From a virus (lineage: Duplodnaviria; Caudoviricetes): a DNA stretch of 53,072 nt. The stretch covers positions 1-53,072 of the IMG/VR virus record IMGVR_UViG_3300007535_000007; one strand, given 5' to 3'. Below are positions 1,522-36,501 of this stretch, in pieces. Both the position numbers and the translations under genes were made by a program. The stretch's first letter is position 1. Each line of letters opens with the position of its first letter. A model generated the notes under the pieces. It did no database searches. It was not told the origin of the DNA and was given only the letters and a program-made list of their open reading frames with translations.

Positions 1522-3069
1522 CTACTTGGTACCGCGGATTACGGCGCCCGCGCCGGGGTAATCGTCCGTAACGTCGGAAACTTCATCAGCCCAACCTGGG
1601 GCCGTACCTACAGTAATATCACCTATTTGATTCATTGCGACCGACCAACCAAATGTTCGACCACTGTCATACTCAAATACATAAGTTGCTCCGTCTCGTG
1701 CTTCGATAGGATTAGGAATTACCTCTGTTTCCGTCCATGTACCACCTATATTCTTAATAATATATAACACCCCTCGAACAGATCCCGATACTCCGGGTTG
1801 CGGATCAACAGGGTCGGTTTTGTTTGCATAGGCGATGACTTCACCAGATCCACATATGGCGCAACCATGGTATTCGCCATTGGTCTCACTAGCTATTGTG
1901 GTCCTTGTAAATGTGCCATTGTCATTATCTTCCCATACATAAACTGCTGGAGTTCCCGCAGCCCATTTAGTTCCGACAATTGTTCTTCCATCGTCGCTAA
2001 TAGCAACATCAACATATTGCCAATATCCACCAGGAAATGGAAGTTGCGCATATCTTTCCATTTTTTCTGTCCCCGCATTCCAACGATAAACAATAAACGT
2101 GGTCTGATTACTAATCTCATCTGTGTCAATAAACCAGAGAGCCGTTACCAGTGTGTCACCATCACGAGATATTGCCATCGTATGACCTTCACCGAACGCA
2201 TCAGTCTGGGTGGGTAGGGCAGTATTATTTAATACCTGTACATGCGTCCAGGTTCCTGCAACATTTTTAAATGAGTGAACGAATCCCTGTGTCACAACCG
2301 ATGCTTGATACGGTTCATTAGGTGAGCCTATAAATAGGAATGATCCTGGGCCGCCATCTCCACGAAGTGCTACCGAATGTCCGAATCCTTCATTATTTGA
2401 GCCGGCATCTGCCCAACCAACGCCGCCGTTAACCGGTTCCGTGGCGGCGGTTGTAATCTTGCCAACCTGCACATAGTTATCCCCCACCTTTTCAAAAAGG
2501 AAAACGGCACCGCTGGTAATTCCGGTTTCTACGAAATCCGGAGCACCAACCGCAATAAATGTCCCATTAGAGTTGGGTGCGAGCAGACGTGTGTGATACT
2601 GAACGAAATTGGAGCCTCCTCCATACCGCACACCGCCAAAGTTTGCGTCTTTTGTTCCTTGGGTAACGTCTACATGCGAGAATGTTGTAAGAAGTGTATA
2701 TTCATCGTTGGCTCGTTGCCATACGGTAACGTGCCCGTCGTAATTGGTCCCGGGAGCCGGTGTTGGGTCATTATCCACAGCACTACCATCTGGCACACCG
2801 ACGAACAACAAACTACCGTCGTCTGTCATTGCGGTTGTCCACCCTGATGAATTTCCAAAATTAGCATCCAGAGGATGTTGTTCAAAGTATATACTACTCT
2901 CTGCGTCCCATGTGGTAAGGTCACCGCACCCAATGCTTTCTTCTGGTGTTTTAATACCTAATATAGGTTGTCGGAATGGTTCTGGCTCTATTGCGCCTGT
3001 ACTTGTTGTTATTTTTCCAGTACGATCATCAATAATGATTCGAACCCCAGGGGAGTTTAATTTTTTCAT
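1522..3069 (-). CDS. FG-GAP-like beta-propeller protein, probably virion-associated
   Basis: Repeated FG-x-S-V-A, VGAP/IGSP and GAVFLF motifs; GATAAATA upstream. Confidence 0.7.
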   Translation of the reverse strand: MKKLNSPGVRIIIDDRTGKITTSTGAIEPEPFRQPILGIKTPEESIGCGDLTTWDAESSIYFEQHPLDANFGNSSGWTTAMTDDGSLLFVGVPDGSAVDNDPTPAPGTNYDGHVTVWQRANDEYTLLTTFSHVDVTQGTKDANFGGVRYGGGSNFVQYHTRLLAPNSNGTFIAVGAPDFVETGITSGAVFLFEKVGDNYVQVGKITTAATEPVNGGVGWADAGSNNEGFGHSVALRGDGGPGSFLFIGSPNEPYQASVVTQGFVHSFKNVAGTWTHVQVLNNTALPTQTDAFGEGHTMAISRDGDTLVTALWFIDTDEISNQTTFIVYRWNAGTEKMERYAQLPFPGGYWQYVDVAISDDGRTIVGTKWAAGTPAVYVWEDNDNGTFTRTTIASETNGEYHGCAICGSGEVIAYANKTDPVDPQPGVSGSVRGVLYIIKNIGGTWTETEVIPNPIEARDGATYVFEYDSGRTFGWSVAMNQIGDITVGTAPGWADEVSDVTDDYPGAGAVIRGTK

Positions 3070-5944: not shown

Positions 5945-7063
5945 TTATTGGTTAGTTTCATAAACTGACAAAGATTCATTTGTCTGGCGGTGTGTCATTA
6001 TAAAAGTTGTGCGCCTTGATAGCTCTTTCAGCTTGCGACTCCCAGTATAGGTGCATGCCGACCTTACGCCGCCGAGAATATCCTGCAGGGTACCGGCGAC
6101 TGGACCACGATAAGGAACAAGAACTCGCTTACCTTCACTGGCACGATACTCTGCGAGCTCGCCGCTGTGTTTTTCCTGGGCGATCTTCGATGACATGCCG
6201 TAGAATTCCATATACTTCCGCTCCGCGTCTAGTGTGTCGAGAGCAACCCCGTTATTACGAATAACCTCAGATGTCTTATGCCACTCGCTAATAATCTCAC
6301 CACCGCACTCGTCATGTCCAGCCAACATGCCACCGAGCATGACGAAGTCGGCACCAGCACCAAACGCTTTCGCAACGTCGCCGGGGTTGGTGCAACCACC
6401 ATCAGCGATGATGTGACCGCCCAGCCCGTGTGCTGCATCCGCACATTCGATCACCGCCGATAGCTGCGGGTAACCCACACCAGCCTTCTTGCGGGTAGTA
6501 CAAACGCTTCCAGGACCAATCCCAATCTTAATCATATCTGCACCAGCTAGTATCAGCGCCTCGGTCATGTCTGCTGTCACTACGTTGCCTGCAATAAGGA
6601 CTCGATCCACTCCAATTATTTCTCGAAGCTTTTTTACAGATTCTACGAAATTTTCTGTATAACCGTTCGCCACATCGAGACATACATAAGAGACGATCGG
6701 GACGCGATCTAGAATCTTCTGAAGGTTTTCAAAGTCAGATTTAGAGGATCCAGTTGATACGGCAACATCTCCAATCCAATCCGTTGCCGTAAATCCGTTT
6801 GTTGCATTTCCCCATTCCTCTACTGAATAATGTTTATGTATGCAGGTAAACATGCGGTTCTTATGTAATGCCTTTGCCATTTCAAACGTGCCGACGGTGT
6901 CCATGTTTGCTGCCATGATAGGGATTCCGTTGTAGACGGTTGTTGAATGTCGAAATCGAAATTCGCGAAACAGATCAACTTCCTTACGAGATACTAATGT
7001 GCTGCGCTTTGGACGAATGAGCACATCAGTATAATCTAGTTTTGGGTCGTTGTCAATTCGCAT
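5945..7063 (-). CDS. guaC: GMP reductase
   Basis: [21 protein letters not shown] start, [11 protein letters not shown] catalytic loop, YRASEGK; start moved to 7063 after GGAGGA SD. Confidence 0.95.
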
Positions 7064-7449
7064 TGTTCCTCCTGAATCTTCTGCCAAAATTCCTGCCATG
7101 ATGATATGTAATAGCTATTTCCTACCAACAACGAAGTGTATAGGCTTTGACCATAATATGTCAATGGGGTAGGTAGCGTATATTGTATTTTAGAAAGGTC
7201 ATTGCTGATTGCATCGTCATGTTCGATGAGTCGAGAATGAATATAAATAGATCTGCCGCCGTCGGCATAAATCGCTTGAGCATTATAGACGAGCGTCTTA
7301 CCAATGGCTTCGAATAGGTTATCGAAATCGAGTTGTGTAATCAAATAATAACTTGCGTGTTTAGACCATCCACACATCCAATCATAGAATTTTTGATTCA
7401 TTTGACCATTTGTAATAAGAGCAACATCAGCATCAATCAGATAGTTCAT
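7036..7449 (-). CDS. Degenerate HAD/phosphomannomutase-like protein
   Basis: YLIDAD N-terminal DxD-like motif, YLIT; short. Confidence 0.4.
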
Positions 7450-31106: not shown

Positions 31107-31460
31107 TTAGGTATCTTCTTCAATTATTAGTCGAAGCGGAAAACCTTCAGCACGAGCAGTTCTAATACATGTATTCATCTTCTCTTCAGCAATCTCGAAT
31201 TGGTAGATACCAACCACGGCGCTGCCATCTGCATGAATCTTTAGCATAGTTTCAAATGCTTGGTCGTGATCCATATGAAAGACTAGGACTAATAGACCCA
31301 CAACGAAGTCCATCGTTGTCTTATCATCATTTAACATTATCACACGCCAAAGATTTGGCTCGGTTACTTCAACGTCTTCTAATTCTTCTACCGCAACGTC
31401 GCTATCTGGGGAGATGTCTTTCATCTCATTCATAATGTTTTCTAATTCTGCTTCATTCAT
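31107..31460 (-). CDS. clpS: ClpS adaptor
   Basis: WRVIMLNDDKTTMDFVV, MLKIHADGSAVVGIY..EIAE, GFPL. Confidence 0.92.
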   Translation of the reverse strand: MNEAELENIMNEMKDISPDSDVAVEELEDVEVTEPNLWRVIMLNDDKTTMDFVVGLLVLVFHMDHDQAFETMLKIHADGSAVVGIYQFEIAEEKMNTCIRTARAEGFPLRLIIEEDT

Positions 31461-31470
31461 GGTCGCTCCG

Positions 31471-31520
31471 AAAATGCTAGAGTGTGCTAACATTGTAGCA
31501 CACCCTAGCACCTCTGTCAA
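31471..31520 (-). terminator. Terminator-like hairpin after sHSP overlapping a TTGACA-N17-TACAAT promoter for clpS
   Basis: TGCTAGGGTGTGCTA...TAGCACACTCTAGCA followed by TTTT. Confidence 0.65.
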
Positions 31521-31524
31521 AGAA

Positions 31525-31959
31525 TCACGAAGATTTAATTTCGATCTTTCTTGGCAGATTCTCTTCTGGAACATAATGTTCTAGTGAGACAACCAAAAGA
31601 CCATCTCGAAACTTCGCATCCTTCACCTCCCAGTGTTCTGGCAGATAGAAAGACTTTGAAAAGCTTCGTGTAGAGATACCTCGATAGGTATATGTCTTCT
31701 CGTCTTCTTCAGTCTTGTCTGACATCTCTGCGGAAATGGTCAAATGACTTCCTTCTACAGTAATATCAATATCGTCAGGACTAAAGCCGGCAACGGCGAG
31801 CTCAATATCTGAGGAAGTCTCAGATCGCTTCACAATATTATGTGGTGGATAGTTAGTCGTTGCGCGAGAATATCCATCAAAGACTCGATCAAAGTCCACA
31901 AAGTGACGATCGATCCATTCGGCTAGATTGGATGTGGTTATCTTAGGTAGGTTAGTCAT
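31525..31959 (-). CDS. Small heat shock protein (IbpA/Hsp20 family)
   Basis: NYPPHNI, IELAVAGF, YRGISTRSF, DGLLVV. Confidence 0.95.
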   Translation of the reverse strand: MTNLPKITTSNLAEWIDRHFVDFDRVFDGYSRATTNYPPHNIVKRSETSSDIELAVAGFSPDDIDITVEGSHLTISAEMSDKTEEDEKTYTYRGISTRSFSKSFYLPEHWEVKDAKFRDGLLVVSLEHYVPEENLPRKIEIKSS

Positions 31960-31964
31960 AATAG

Positions 31965-32034
31965 TTACTCCTTATTAAGCAAGTAAAGTGGGCACCATGC
32001 CCAATGTAGAGGGAGACCATTCTCCCTCTACATT
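31965..32034 (-). promoter_or_regulatory. ROSE-like RNA thermometer in the sHSP 5' UTR
   Basis: Three hairpins; the last is UUACUUGCUU-AAU-AAGGAGUAA with UUGCU and a bulged G opposite the SD. Confidence 0.75.
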
Positions 32035-32049
32035 TTTATTTAGCATCTA

Positions 32050-33513
32050 TTATAGGAATAGAAGCGCAAAAGCTTTAACAACCAAAAGCGGTGTCATAAC
32101 TTTTCGAGACTGTTCCGACAGATTCGATGTAAACGACTGGCTACGAACATACTCTTCAGCATCATTCACAAGCTGATATGCCTGATTCATTAGCTCAGTG
32201 CGCTGCATAGAAGCCTGATTATACGCCTCTACCAACACAGCGTACTCTTCCATAGCGGCCTGATTCTGACGGAAGCAAGAGATTGTTGCTTGCTTCTGTA
32301 GATCCGTATCAGCACGGGAGCCTTTTGTGTAATCAGGAACATTGCCTGTGCAATCAGAAACCACTGGAGGTTCTGGCGGAACCAACACGATGGTCTGAGA
32401 CTGTGCAAAACGAGCATCTGCCAACTGAAGAAGCTTGCAGTAATACTCCGCATCACCGACAGAAACACCTAGCTCTCTTGCCTGAAAGCTCATTCCACCT
32501 GAACATGCATTCGAGAAAACAGGCGCAACGCTGGCAACCGGCGCTCCACGGAAGTCTGTGCTAGCATCAACCTGAACATTTGTGGTTGAGCCTTCAACAA
32601 CCTGTGTCGAACCTTCAACATTCTGTGTTGAGAGGGCACCTGTGCCTTCTTCACCACCGAAGTTGTTATTGACAGTGACATCGCCTGTAGAAGCGGAAGA
32701 TGTATTATCTACAGCACCTTCTTCTACATTTAGAGAACCACCAGTTGCGGACGAATCACCACCGACCATGCTGTTTGTGTTTGCAACAGCACCTTCATCA
32801 ATAGATGCATTTCCACCCTGTGCAGTTACAGCACCTTCAGCGACATTTAGCGTATTGGTGCCAGTGTTGCTATTCTGTACTGCGCCTTCTGAAATAGTTG
32901 CATTGCCACCTGCTACCGTGTTGGTGTTGCTATTCTGTACTGCGCCTTCTGAAATAGTTGCATTGCCACCTGCGCCACCAGCTCCACCTTCCGCGGTGTT
33001 TGTATTCTGGACTGCACCCTCTGAGACAGAGAAGTTATTGGTGTTGGTGTTTGTGGCTGAATTTTGGACTGCACCCTCTGAGACGGTTAGCGTGTTGGTA
33101 CCTGTTACCGCTCCACTCTCCACGGTCACCGCACCACCCGTTGCAGATGATGTGCTTGGTCCTGTTGATAGTGTTGTATCACCAACATTTACCGAGCCTC
33201 CCGTAGCGTTGGCATTGCCGCCTGTTGCTGTTTGGGTTTGGTTCTGCTGCTGCTGTTGCTGGTTAGTTAGCGTGTTGGTATTGTCAACCGTTGCAGTGGC
33301 ATTTGCAGTTGCTTCGGCAATTCCAATTCCGACACCGTTGCCGCCGCCCTCGCCTTCGCCGCCGTTGCCATTTCCACCTGGTCCACAGGTGCTACCTTGA
33401 CAAACTTCAACTTTTTCGCCGTCAACAAATGTTGTACCGGCTGATACGATCTGAGATGATGTTACCGCAAGAACAACAAGAACTGCTGCTGCGACTTTAA
33501 TAAGAACCTTCAT
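32050..33513 (-). CDS. Secreted low-complexity G/T/N/A-rich repeat protein with Cys-containing C-terminal domain
   Basis: Signal peptide MKVLIKVAAAVLVVLAVTSSQIVSA; imperfect (V/I)xEGAV(Q/T/A/D)N repeats; poly-Q. Confidence 0.8.
   Translation of the reverse strand: MKVLIKVAAAVLVVLAVTSSQIVSAGTTFVDGEKVEVCQGSTCGPGGNGNGGEGEGGGNGVGIGIAEATANATATVDNTNTLTNQQQQQQNQTQTATGGNANATGGSVNVGDTTLSTGPSTSSATGGAVTVESGAVTGTNTLTVSEGAVQNSATNTNTNNFSVSEGAVQNTNTAEGGAGGAGGNATISEGAVQNSNTNTVAGGNATISEGAVQNSNTGTNTLNVAEGAVTAQGGNASIDEGAVANTNSMVGGDSSATGGSLNVEEGAVDNTSSASTGDVTVNNNFGGEEGTGALSTQNVEGSTQVVEGSTTNVQVDASTDFRGAPVASVAPVFSNACSGGMSFQARELGVSVGDAEYYCKLLQLADARFAQSQTIVLVPPEPPVVSDCTGNVPDYTKGSRADTDLQKQATISCFRQNQAAMEEYAVLVEAYNQASMQRTELMNQAYQLVNDAEEYVRSQSFTSNLSEQSRKVMTPLLVVKAFALLFL
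32864..32973. repeat. 50-bp identical tandem repeat with 60-bp period inside the repeat-protein gene
   Basis: 32864-32913 equals 32924-32973 (encodes AGGNATISEGAVQNSNT). Confidence 0.9.
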
Positions 33514-33538
33514 ATATTTAACTCCTTATATGATAATA

Positions 33539-33640
33539 AGAAGTTACCAGGCAGAATTTACAACCATATGACATGCACTTAGGTTAATTCTTTGCGACCC
33601 TCATCTTTCGATAAAGTTAGCCGTTTAACAAGTATCTTCT
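33539..33640 (-). ncRNA. c-di-GMP-I (GEMM-I) riboswitch
   Basis: GGCUAAC-UUUAUC-GAAA-GAUGAG-GGUCGCAAAG-AAUU..CCUAAG..UAUGG..AAUUCUGCC: GAAA tetraloop, canonical CCUAAG/UAUGG receptor, GCAAAG junction. Confidence 0.88.
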
Positions 33641-33692
33641 ATAGTTTCTCCAATAATAGACTACATAAAATAAAAAGACAAAGTAGTCCTTC

Positions 33693-33734
33693 TATTTATA
33701 CTTTATTGTATAATATAAAAAGGACTACTGTCAA
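33693..33734 (-). promoter_or_regulatory. Tandem promoters upstream of the riboswitch: T4-type late TATAAATA and TTGACA-N18-TACAAT
   Basis: TATTTATA at 33693-700; TGTCAA at 33729-34; ATTGTA at 33705-10. Confidence 0.6.
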
Positions 33735-33750
33735 GAGCTGTGTTTCGTCT

Positions 33751-34035
33751 TTAGTACAGGCGTTTACTTTTCTGTTGCTCTTCTAAAGTCTTAAGCCATC
33801 GCTTACGAGCAATCGCCTTCTCCTTCTTTCTGCGCACAGATGGCTTTTCATAAAACTCTCTTTCTCGCAGTTCACGAAGAATGCCAGAATCTTGGACCTT
33901 CTTGTTAAAAATCTTCATAGCCTTTTCAAAACCAAATGGGCGATCCTGAACTTCAACCTTAAGCCCTGGCACTAGATCACGAGGATTAAATTCATTCTTG
34001 CCTCGGTGTGTGTATCTTTCTTTTCTACTCATCAT
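33751..34035 (-). CDS. rpsU: Phage ribosomal protein bS21
   Basis: [12 protein letters not shown]...[20 protein letters not shown]. Confidence 0.9.
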
Positions 34036-35215
34036 TCATCCTTTTCTTTTCGTAATGGTAATCTAATCTTCCGTTCTCTCCAATAACAACTCTCTCTAAT
34101 CCTTCCTTACGAAGTCGAGGAAGCCGAAATTGAACATGCAACAATACCTTTTCAAGTATAGTCTGCAATCCTCTTGCTCCTGTCTTTTCTTTAGAAGACT
34201 GATGAGCAACGCCGCGCACAAATTCAGGTAAGAATTCGAGGTCCACATTGTCTAGTGAAAAGAGTCCTCGATACTGGTCAATTAAACAATTCTTAGGTGT
34301 AGTTAGTACCTTAACCAGCATATCCTCAGTAAGATCATGCGTAGCGACAACAATCGGAAAACGACCAACAAATTCTGGAATCAAACCAAAGCTCATTAAG
34401 TTCTCTGATGTCGCCTCTGATAATAACATAGCTTCGGATGATTTGTCAAGTACCGCCCCAAATCCGATTGTGGAATGTTCGCGCTTACTTTCCTTGATAA
34501 TGTCAGCCAATCCCACAAAAGCTCCGCCGGCGATAAACAAGATGTCTTTTGTTTCGAAATCTTCTCCGGACGAAAGTTTGATTTTTGTTCCTTCTACAAG
34601 TTTGAGTAATGCCTGTTGAACACCTTCTCCCGAAACATCTCGATTGACTGTTGCGCTCTCGCTCTTACGCGATTTCTTATCGATCTCATCAATGTATATA
34701 ATGCCTTTCTGCGCCAATTCGATGTCTCCATCGGCGGCGTGAACTAGTCTGTCAATCATATTTTCAACGTCTTCACCGACATAACCAGATTCAGTAAGAC
34801 TAGTGGCATCGGTTTGAACAAACGGAAGATTAAGAGTTTTCGCCACTGTGCTAACAAGTAGCGTCTTACCAGTTCCACTCGGTCCAATAAGAAGAACATT
34901 CGATTTCTTTAGTTCTGTATCTGAGACAACTGGATTGTTGATGCGCTTGTAATGATTATAGATTGCTACGGATAATGTCTCTTTTGCGAGTGATTGCTCG
35001 ATAATATACTGATCGAGATACTCTTTGATTTCTTCAGGGGTTGGCAGGTCATCAATTTTTTTGATGTTTTTCTTGTTATTATGAATAACATTATATCCGA
35101 GTTCAATGCATTCATCACAAATATATACCGTAGCCGGACCTTGATCTGGGCCTGCTAATACCTTTTTAACTTCTTTTCTGCCCTTGCTACAAAAATTGCA
35201 AGTGATATTATTCAT
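34025..35215 (-). CDS. clpX: ClpX ATPase
   Basis: CNFC..ICDEC Zn domain, [25 protein letters not shown] loop, TGARGL. Confidence 0.95.
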
Positions 35216-35225
35216 CTATCTCTCT

Positions 35226-36194
35226 TTATCCGCGATTGTCTGTTGCTGATAGTCGGTGCCGGTCAGGTGCCTTAGGTTTCGTAACTAACTCGGCAGTTGA
35301 GTTTGGATTAATTTTTACTTGTTTCATTGTAGCGGTTTCTGAAGGCATTTGCAAATCTTGAATAATTTCTTCATCCGTAGATTCGACATCAGTTGATGGA
35401 CCTTTCGATGAAGGAGGCGGATCGGTCTTCGTGGGAGGCGACTTTTTCTTAGAAGCCCTATTCATTAGAGAATAGTTTGCAGCCATGAGGAGGAGAATTG
35501 CCATCGGATCAAAAACGAATATAAATGCAATGATAGCCCATCGAACAGCATCTTCTAGATTATCTTCAGAATTTCCATAAACAATCTCAGCGATATATTT
35601 GATAGGACCAACTTCCATTTCAAGAGACCGAAGCTCGTTGCCGAGTTGAAGTTTCTCATCTTCATACTGGTCAATGCGATTCTGTGCCTCATCGATCGTC
35701 GTTGCCAACAGGTCTCTCTGCTCTTGTTGTCCTTCTCGTACTGCCCTAGCTCCGTCATCACCACTAATCTTGTCATATTCGATTAGCGTCTGAACCGTTT
35801 CATCGAGTTGAGCAATAACCGTTTCTGCATCTGCAATTCGAGCTTCTTCTCTATTAATTCTCTGATCTAGTCTTTCGATCTGTGCTGTGTTGTTTGTGAC
35901 CGGGGCTGTTTGTTCTATGTGTGCTTTTGATAGCAGTCCAAAGATACCCATACTGGTGAGCAGCATCGCAATCAATACCAGAGGCAGCATCGCATATTTG
36001 ATTTTCGTGGGCTCTGTCCAGTTGCGGTAGATCCAGCTTACGCCGACAACTTTACCGAGTTCGATAACAGAACCCATTACAAGAGCATGGATCGGCAATC
36101 CTGAGAAGATTGCCACAATACCAAAGATGGCAAAGACTGCGGCTGTTCCAGCCATAGCCAATGCGGTCAATAGAGTGATGATTCCAAATAGCAT
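35226..36194 (-). CDS. Multi-TM coiled-coil membrane protein of T4-like phages
   Basis: LTSMGIFGLLSKAH, EVGPIKYIAE, IFVFDPMAILLL. Confidence 0.75.
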   Translation of the reverse strand: MLFGIITLLTALAMAGTAAVFAIFGIVAIFSGLPIHALVMGSVIELGKVVGVSWIYRNWTEPTKIKYAMLPLVLIAMLLTSMGIFGLLSKAHIEQTAPVTNNTAQIERLDQRINREEARIADAETVIAQLDETVQTLIEYDKISGDDGARAVREGQQEQRDLLATTIDEAQNRIDQYEDEKLQLGNELRSLEMEVGPIKYIAEIVYGNSEDNLEDAVRWAIIAFIFVFDPMAILLLMAANYSLMNRASKKKSPPTKTDPPPSSKGPSTDVESTDEEIIQDLQMPSETATMKQVKINPNSTAELVTKPKAPDRHRLSATDNRG

Positions 36195-36201
36195 ATATAA
36201 G

Positions 36202-36501
36202 CTATTTATCAATAGTTGTGATGCAATGGTTCTGTCTTAATTCCGTGTAGAATGCTTGTTTAGGAGTAATATACGCGAATTGAAGATCTTGATTTCCGAT
36301 GATAATATAATGATTCGGTAGCTTCTCACGAAAGGCATCTCGAATTTTATTCAGGTAAGCCCTCTGAGATTCAGTTGTAAAATCCCGGTCCAGTTTACAG
36401 TTGATATATAGAACTGGCAGGTTTCCCTCTTGAGGGAATTCTGTAATCTCGATCGGTATCTCTTCTCTTTCTTCGTTATCAAATTTTTTCATCTTCATCA
36501 C
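36202..36501 (-). CDS. Hypothetical protein
   Basis: 99-aa ORF; PKQAFYTELRQ. Confidence 0.55.
   Translation of the reverse strand: MMKMKKFDNEEREEIPIEITEFPQEGNLPVLYINCKLDRDFTTESQRAYLNKIRDAFREKLPNHYIIIGNQDLQFAYITPKQAFYTELRQNHCITTIDK

Follow-up and report, generated by a model that had tools for sequence, protein, structure and literature searches.

What does a c-di-GMP-I aptamer do in the leader of a phage gene? The question arises from a virus record in IMG/VR, 53,072 bases long, which we analyzed over its whole length and refer to as the window. On its minus strand, an open reading frame at 32050-33513 with its ATG at 33511-33513 encodes a protein of 487 amino acids (aa). An earlier note, made from the sequence alone, had described the leader of this gene as a riboswitch for cyclic dimeric guanosine monophosphate (c-di-GMP) that turns on translation of a secreted repeat protein. 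We lean by a modest measure toward the same answer, namely that the leader holds a diverged but working c-di-GMP-I riboswitch that would turn ON translation of an exported repeat protein. Riboswitches of this class, and the way in which they act, are already known; what is new is the jumbo phage that owns the element and the gene that it precedes. If true, a giant phage couples the production of an exported protein to the signal that separates sessile from motile hosts.

The first line of evidence comes from covariance models. Among 4227 Rfam families scanned over the whole window, RF01051 (c-di-GMP-I, or GEMM-I) is the only one to exceed its gathering score, with a match at 33547-33632 on the minus strand that scores 35.9 bits against a gathering score of 35 and runs the full length of the model (positions 1-87 of 87). 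This is the search by which the earlier note had proposed that its reading be checked. With all 4227 families run on the window, the match has an E-value of 0.002; the figure falls to 2.2e-05 on a 601-nucleotide (nt) stretch and to 4.7e-7 when the single family is run on the record, and a lower-scoring overlapping match from the clan of RF01051 was also reported. The hallmarks that had been picked out by eye all fall into place in the alignment to the model. The paired region P2 has 7 base pairs (bp) and is capped by GAAA at 33606-33609, P3 carries a canonical 11-nt tetraloop receptor composed of CCUAAG (33578-33583) and UAUGG (33564-33568), and the junction sequence GCAAAG lies at 33590-33595. 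Model positions 11, 38, and 83, which we take to be G20, A47, and C92 in the numbering of the Vibrio Vc2 aptamer, are occupied by G (33622), A (33593), and C (33551). In the GEMM-Ib subgroup, which senses 3'3'-cyclic GMP-AMP (3'3'-cGAMP), an A replaces the G at the G20-equivalent position. The G at 33622 departs from that subgroup and agrees with the earlier preference for c-di-GMP over 3'3'-cGAMP. The window contains 21 model pairs, of which 20 are canonical; the model's 10 pairs of lower P3 are all canonical, 8 of them below the two C-G pairs of the receptor.

Could such a match arise by chance in A-T-rich phage DNA? The threshold is passed by only 0.9 bit, but the single-family E-value given above is small, and the background is far lower. 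As a negative control, RF01051 was run over 76 related jumbo-phage records (50 + 26, without L057 and L058) that together comprise 8,230,674 bases. None of the 76 reached the cut-off, and with the limit set at E <= 1 two of them show a match, with scores of 13.5 and 14 bits; the 35.9 bits of the window stand well clear of this related-phage background, in which 14 bits is the best score over 8.23 Mb. The match also lies on the sense strand of the leader, ending 1 nt before a hairpin that contains the Shine-Dalgarno (SD) sequence and 34 nt before the ATG, and it aligns closely with bona fide bacterial aptamers from two metagenome-assembled genomes (MAGs), L085 and L098. We therefore regard a chance match as very improbable.

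A hand count on the alignment shows that the aptamer agrees with 28 of the 36 upper-case consensus positions, and the character of the eight mismatches is informative. Four of them represent two G-C pairs that have turned into A-U on both sides and are thus compensated. Two others form a double variant, at model positions 14 and 34, in which GGCAAAC has become GGCUAAC and GACGCAAAG has become GUCGCAAAG, so that the motif pair in the window is GGCUAAC with GGUCGCAAAG. A pattern scan that required both changes, over one genome per prokaryote species, returned 25 bacterial matches. We scanned 17 of these with Rfam, that is, the 14 that looked aptamer-like by eye together with three that did not (the other eight unlike ones were left out). 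All 14 aptamer-like matches carry an aptamer of the clan exactly at the pattern, and the three controls carry none. Thirteen of the 14 belong to RF01051, with scores of 49.3-74.7 bits, and the remaining one scores 63.6 bits as the GGC variant, RF03167. They come from Nitrospirota, Bdellovibrionales, Burkholderiaceae, Desulfovibrio, Acidobacteriota, Oleiphilaceae, and Lachnospiraceae, among others. Given these 14 clan aptamers, the double change is a recurrent natural form of the c-di-GMP-I family and poses no problem for the aptamer of the window. Its other peculiarities have counterparts as well: a 7-bp P2 is found in L085 (57 bits), and a very short apical P3 is found in L126 (77 bits). When the window aptamer was aligned with bacterial aptamers, L085 and L098 were the closest rows. 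A MAFFT/RNAalifold alignment of the subfamily that bears the double variant recovered only 15 pairs and a partial P3.

The second line of evidence is the hairpin through which the aptamer would act. A stem of 11 bp with a 6-nt loop at 33519-33546 (minus strand) has a folding energy of -10.5 kcal/mol and a z-score of -3.21, with none of 200 shuffles as stable; it accounts for 73% of the ensemble in its 42-nt context and recurs when the whole leader is folded to minimum energy. Its 3' arm holds AAGGAG (33522-33527), which stands 8 nt ahead of the ATG, so the burial of the SD sequence that had been noted earlier is borne out. A gap of 4 nt separates the C92 equivalent (33551) from the start of the 5' arm (33546). 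Because P1 can draw its 3' strand only from the bases that directly follow 33551, any P1 longer than ~4 bp would be mutually exclusive with the SD hairpin, whichever sequence serves as the P1 partner, and the earlier claim of two competing folds is upheld by this overlap. The candidate for P1 pairs a 5' strand at 33629-33640 with a 3' strand at 33539-33550 (both on the minus strand), the latter overlapping the 5' arm of the hairpin. The 10-mer originally proposed pairs at 9 of 10 positions, and in extended form the helix has 10 canonical pairs out of 12 and starts directly after the C92 equivalent.

From these parts a mechanism can be drawn. In the absence of ligand, the hairpin at 33519-33546 would hide AAGGAG and the 487-aa gene would be translated poorly. 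When c-di-GMP in the host is high, the aptamer would bind it and P1 would close, taking its 3' strand from the nucleotides right after the C92 equivalent, which are those of the 5' arm of the hairpin; the hairpin would then open and free the ribosome site, as in an ON switch. Nearest-neighbor energies of -20.8 kcal/mol for aptamer plus SD hairpin and -15.5 kcal/mol for aptamer plus P1, both exclusive of tertiary docking and of ligand energy, predict a default state that is OFF by ~5 kcal/mol and fit a ligand-ON design. Binding of a nanomolar ligand releases more energy than this. The ON direction put forward in the earlier note is the one that the geometry makes most natural; it is read from that geometry, with a P1 partner that is not statistically distinctive.

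Several observations weigh against a working switch, and they suit a different explanation, in which the element is a captured relic, a c-di-GMP-I homolog that no longer binds or switches, and translation is damped constitutively by the SD hairpin on its own, unless the hairpin answers to temperature or to a protein. First, the score of the aptamer is the lowest of the 43 RF01051 matches examined; the other 42, at 49.3-88.9 bits, came from exact core patterns, a choice that favors high scores. The window matches the variant pattern too and yet falls 13 bits under the weakest member of the variant group. This distance points to an aptamer that has diverged, mostly through A-U-rich helices and small indels. 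Second, P3 is weak. The remaining two mismatches to the consensus are found there, where the bulged A of the model is missing, with a one-base bulge on the opposite strand instead, and where model A73 has become U in the internal loop. The lower part of P3 is all A-U and is displaced from the minimum-energy fold of the whole leader (-32.6 kcal/mol), in which P2 and the SD hairpin persist but the 5' strand of P3 is taken up by upstream leader sequence. The z-score of whole-leader folding is only -1.73, and we rejected it as support. Third, P1 does not stand out from shuffled sequence. In a position-constrained test over 32 registers, 1309 of 20000 shuffles (6.5%) and 419 of 7576 natural 43-mers (5.5%) paired as well, and in an unconstrained duplex test 378 of 2000 shuffles and 395 of 1234 natural 43-mers were as good or better. 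The pairing first proposed is thus present where it was placed, but its complementarity is within chance in both shuffle tests, and we rejected it as independent evidence. Finally, the aptamer is absent from L053, L010, and L011, three related records that have the same slot of an S21 gene followed by a repeat-protein gene, with shorter intergenic regions of 163 and 104 nt.

Several features stand against a relic. Nothing is altered at the three positions that contact the ligand, in the tetraloop, or in the 11-nt receptor; the two conserved G-C pairs that changed did so on both sides and left no pair broken, with 20 of 21 model pairs canonical; and the deviations at model positions 14 and 34 represent the natural variant carried by 14 high-scoring bacterial members. 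On balance we consider a relic unlikely, if still a serious contender.

The aptamer might instead be functional with another output, as an OFF switch, as a control of mRNA stability or processing, or as a sensor of another dinucleotide. The expression platform was deduced from a single sequence, an alternative pairing between leader and P3 exists, and the clan, from which the lower-scoring overlapping match was reported, has variant specificities. However, there is no U-run after the SD hairpin, and the hairpin is for this reason not an intrinsic terminator; the short distance between the C92 equivalent and the 5' arm of the hairpin implies direct competition of P1 with the hairpin, and the G at model position 11 argues against 3'3'-cGAMP. 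An output of this kind seems to us quite improbable. We thus retain the diverged but working ON riboswitch as the favored explanation of the locus, with ligand binding and the direction of switching as what we infer from the alignment and the geometry.

How would the leader be transcribed? The sigma70-like promoter that the earlier note had claimed is present as TTGACA-18 nt-TACAAT at 33705-33734 on the minus strand, with 11 of 12 matches. It coincides with a long terminator-like hairpin at 33677-33732 (minus strand), located after the stop codon of the S21 gene and followed by a U-rich run; the region 33650-33750 folds at -24.9 kcal/mol with a z-score of -4.28, and none of 200 shuffles is as stable. 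The -35 hexamer is in the stem of this hairpin and the -10 hexamer is in its loop. Promoter-in-stem-loop cassettes have been described for T4-type phages, and the hairpin at 33677-33732 recalls them. The mRNA would accordingly start at a host-type promoter within the terminator hairpin of the upstream S21 gene. Across the window, TTGACA-N16-18-TAnnnT is found at 14 places on the coding (minus) strand and at one on the plus strand, and from this bias the phage plainly uses host-type promoters. At the corresponding place, the syntenic gene of L053 carries TTGACA-17-TATAAT.

The earlier note had also seen a T4-type late promoter. The sequence TATAAATA, a possible late-type promoter box, is indeed present at 33693-33700 (minus strand) in the loop of the hairpin, but this 8-mer is at chance level in the window, with 3 found versus 3.19 expected, and we rejected it as an enriched late promoter. 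The 7-mer ATAAATA, on the other hand, is strand-biased (17 copies on the coding strand vs 5 on the other), and several copies lie 25-37 nt before start codons when their positions are compared with the starts of open reading frames (ORFs). This suggests that the phage may have two promoter classes, and a late-type promoter upstream of the 487-aa gene is possible.

What the switch would control is a protein with few relatives. Residues 1-25 look like a typical Sec signal peptide ending in VSA, on which basis the protein is predicted to be exported through the Sec pathway, in agreement with the secreted product proposed earlier. Residues 26-300 consist of 19% Gly, 16% Thr, 13% Asn, and 12% Ala, with 25 acidic residues versus one basic residue, and contain seven repeats centered on EGAV. 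A conserved domain with four Cys residues follows (residues ~300-487), predicted to be helical with a predicted local distance difference test (pLDDT) score of 66-85, and the C-terminus is a conserved hydrophobic tail of 16 residues. The AlphaFold model has a mean pLDDT of 41.9, with residues ~350-460 alone at 66-85, and a fold search against the PDB with this poor model gave no hit at E <= 0.001. No match to the protein was found in Pfam, PHROGs, or the ESM Atlas. In a collection of 5.8 billion proteins, the C-terminal domain found its own protein and six relatives only, a family of seven members; the six close homologs, P0002-P0007, are 69-81% identical in the C-terminal domain. The own entry, P0001, is 99.8% identical to the translation of the window and differs by one residue in the repeat region. 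The matrix-like role that the earlier note assigned to the protein gained nothing from the Pfam, PHROG, Atlas, and fold searches and is a guess.

The window itself is classed as linear, with a completeness estimate of 14%, from which a phage genome of ~380 kb is extrapolated. Thirteen sequencing runs, labeled soil metagenome, contain the stretch, and no RNA run is listed among them. In four runs with a low share of the stretch, no contig reaches across 33528-33823, and they thus gave no information on variants of the leader. Relatives of its ClpX in IMG/VR are at most 57% identical, many of them in records of 328-497 kb with terminal repeats, and the best matches among isolated phages are 47-49% identical. 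These values show the window to be a fragment of an uncultivated jumbo phage without a close cultured relative, as the earlier note had supposed of its origin. All sizeable genes around the aptamer are on the minus strand. In gene order they encode a membrane protein (35226-36212), ClpX (34025-35215; Pfam), ribosomal protein S21 (33751-34035; Pfam), the 487-aa protein after an intergenic leader of 237 nt, Hsp20 (31525-31959; Pfam), and ClpS (31107-31574; Pfam). Past the stop codon of the 487-aa gene and before hsp20 there is a GC-rich hairpin of 14 bp at 32003-32034, for which no strand is assigned; a T-run accompanies it on the plus strand alone, despite the minus-strand orientation of all the neighboring genes. 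Elsewhere the window encodes a ribonucleotide reductase, a thymidylate synthase, a clamp-loader-like ATPase, and a protein of the IMPDH/GMP-reductase family; tRNA genes are absent from the 53 kb. No GGDEF or EAL domain was found within these 53 kb, which cover only ~14% of the genome. The IMPDH/GMP-reductase-family protein (5945-7099, minus strand; Pfam E 1.3e-67) is a guanine-nucleotide enzyme, and to name it as a candidate link to c-di-GMP is speculative.

The order of genes is shared within the group as a block of membrane protein, ClpX, S21, secreted low-complexity repeat protein, Hsp20, and ClpS (window 31107-36212, minus strand; L053 5006-10787; L011 5965-8730). In L053, whose ClpX is 57% identical, the membrane protein, ClpX, and S21 are followed, after the intergenic region of 163 nt, by a secreted protein of 364 aa that is rich in Gly, Asn, and Asp and whose C-terminal part matches distant members of the family. 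Reading of the translation shows an OmpA-C-like ORF after this repeat protein, and the ribosome site of the gene is unsequestered in the minimum-energy fold. In L011, ClpX and S21 are followed, after 104 nt, by a secreted protein of 391 aa with IADGAVRN repeats; L010 gave the same tblastn match, and frames were read for L011 alone.

Whether related phages keep the aptamer was a check that the earlier note had suggested, and retention was not seen in any of the 76 jumbo-phage records, including the three with the same slot. Other routes to aptamer-bearing relatives gave the same answer. Megablast and tblastn against isolated phages found nothing, and blastn with the leader found no relatives. 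A locus search based on the protein returned only L002-L005, which match at the level of the signal peptide and contain no Rfam match. A search with the family alignment gave none in viral contigs and, in metagenome contigs, one distant relative, L006, with no aptamer by eye. The variant aptamer pattern had no match in viral contigs. The collections searched may lack records very near the window. Our first aptamer pattern led to L084, an unrelated true aptamer. The other match to this first pattern, L083, was rejected, as it falls within a frame of 564 aa and Rfam gives no match there. The aptamer would then be either a recent gain in the sub-lineage of the window or a loss elsewhere, and gain is favored because the leader of the window, at 237 nt, is longer than its counterparts.

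Taken more broadly, and tentatively, we propose that large, probably virulent phages read host c-di-GMP through captured GEMM-I aptamers to time the production of exported envelope or matrix proteins. In the present case the aptamer would have been inserted recently before the gene in the group-wide slot between S21 and hsp20, which encodes a secreted, acidic, Gly/Thr/Asn-rich repeat protein, and the polymer-like product would be deployed only in sessile hosts in the biofilm state.

Are there other aptamers of this kind in viral DNA? A pattern for the canonical core found 28 loci in IMG/VR, 26 of which carry an aptamer of the clan at 58-89 bits (all 14 in the first batch and 12 of 14 in the second, the exceptions being L133 and L135). 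A good number of these 26 may lie in prophages or in flanking host sequence. Four of the 26 aptamers are in contigs of 145-237 kb, namely L113 (tandem aptamers), L114, L120, and L124. By a crude measure of hydrophobicity, 9 of the 28 loci have a strongly hydrophobic N-terminus on the next SD-preceded frame of at least 100 aa. That 26 contigs with solid c-di-GMP-I aptamers should come from so narrow a pattern scan makes the phenomenon look under-reported, with the window as one of its weaker instances. In the 237-kb contig L113, two tandem RF01051 aptamers (2275-2462, plus strand; 60.8 and 65.1 bits), each followed by a stem and a T-run, precede a gene for a membrane protein. In three viral contigs the c-di-GMP-I aptamer has a pemK RNA motif (RF02913; 57-68 bits) at a distance of 1.4-2.6 kb (L125 3917-3997, L137 4873-4953, and L127 4107-4185).

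In McCown et al. (2017; PMC5473149), riboswitches are described as rarely identified in phage genomes, and only two phage examples of the c-di-GMP-I class are given there, in Clostridioides difficile prophages (Sudarsan et al. 2008, as cited in PMC5473149). A full-text search of the literature found no c-di-GMP-I riboswitch in a virulent or jumbo phage, although supplements might list some. The C. difficile switches resemble the element of the window in being the same class of riboswitch on a phage genome, whereas they belong to temperate phages of a Firmicute and the window derives from a fragment of an uncultivated phage of ~380 kb in soil-metagenome runs. The other viral aptamers from IMG/VR differ from that of the window in their canonical AAA/GAC core and in their scores of 58-89 bits. 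In arrangement, the nearest among them are on L129 (3345-3500, minus strand; a 36 kb contig; RF01051 at 58 bits) and L134 (1044-1128, minus strand; 41 kb), where an aptamer is followed directly by an SD-sequestering hairpin and then by a gene whose product bears a signal peptide and is rich in Gly, Ser, Thr, and Asn. The layout on L129 is an independent analogue that speaks for the switch. The proteins so regulated have no detectable similarity to that of the window (best blastp E 0.13).

Vc2 of Vibrio cholerae (RF01051) shares with the window aptamer the three-helix junction, the GAAA of P2 docking to the P3 receptor, the GCAAAG sequence, and the G, A, and C ligand contacts. The window aptamer differs in having a P2 of 7 bp rather than the consensus 6, an internal loop of UAA/GUC rather than AAA/GAC, the P3 bulge on the other strand, A-U-rich helices, a phage genome that encodes it, and a score of 35.9 bits. 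Among bacterial aptamers, L085 and L098, both from Nitrospirota MAGs, score 57 and 53 bits. In L085 (259-2367; a Nitrospiria MAG), the aptamer, which most resembles that of the window, precedes genes for two secreted proteins of ~170 aa that read as surface-type, followed by ORFs whose translations look chaperone-like and usher-like, and its downstream genes are unrelated to the protein of the window. Bacterial as they are, L085 and L098 show the same combination as the phage element, that is, the UAA/GUC variant, a 7-bp P2, a canonical 11-nt receptor, and A-U-rich helices.

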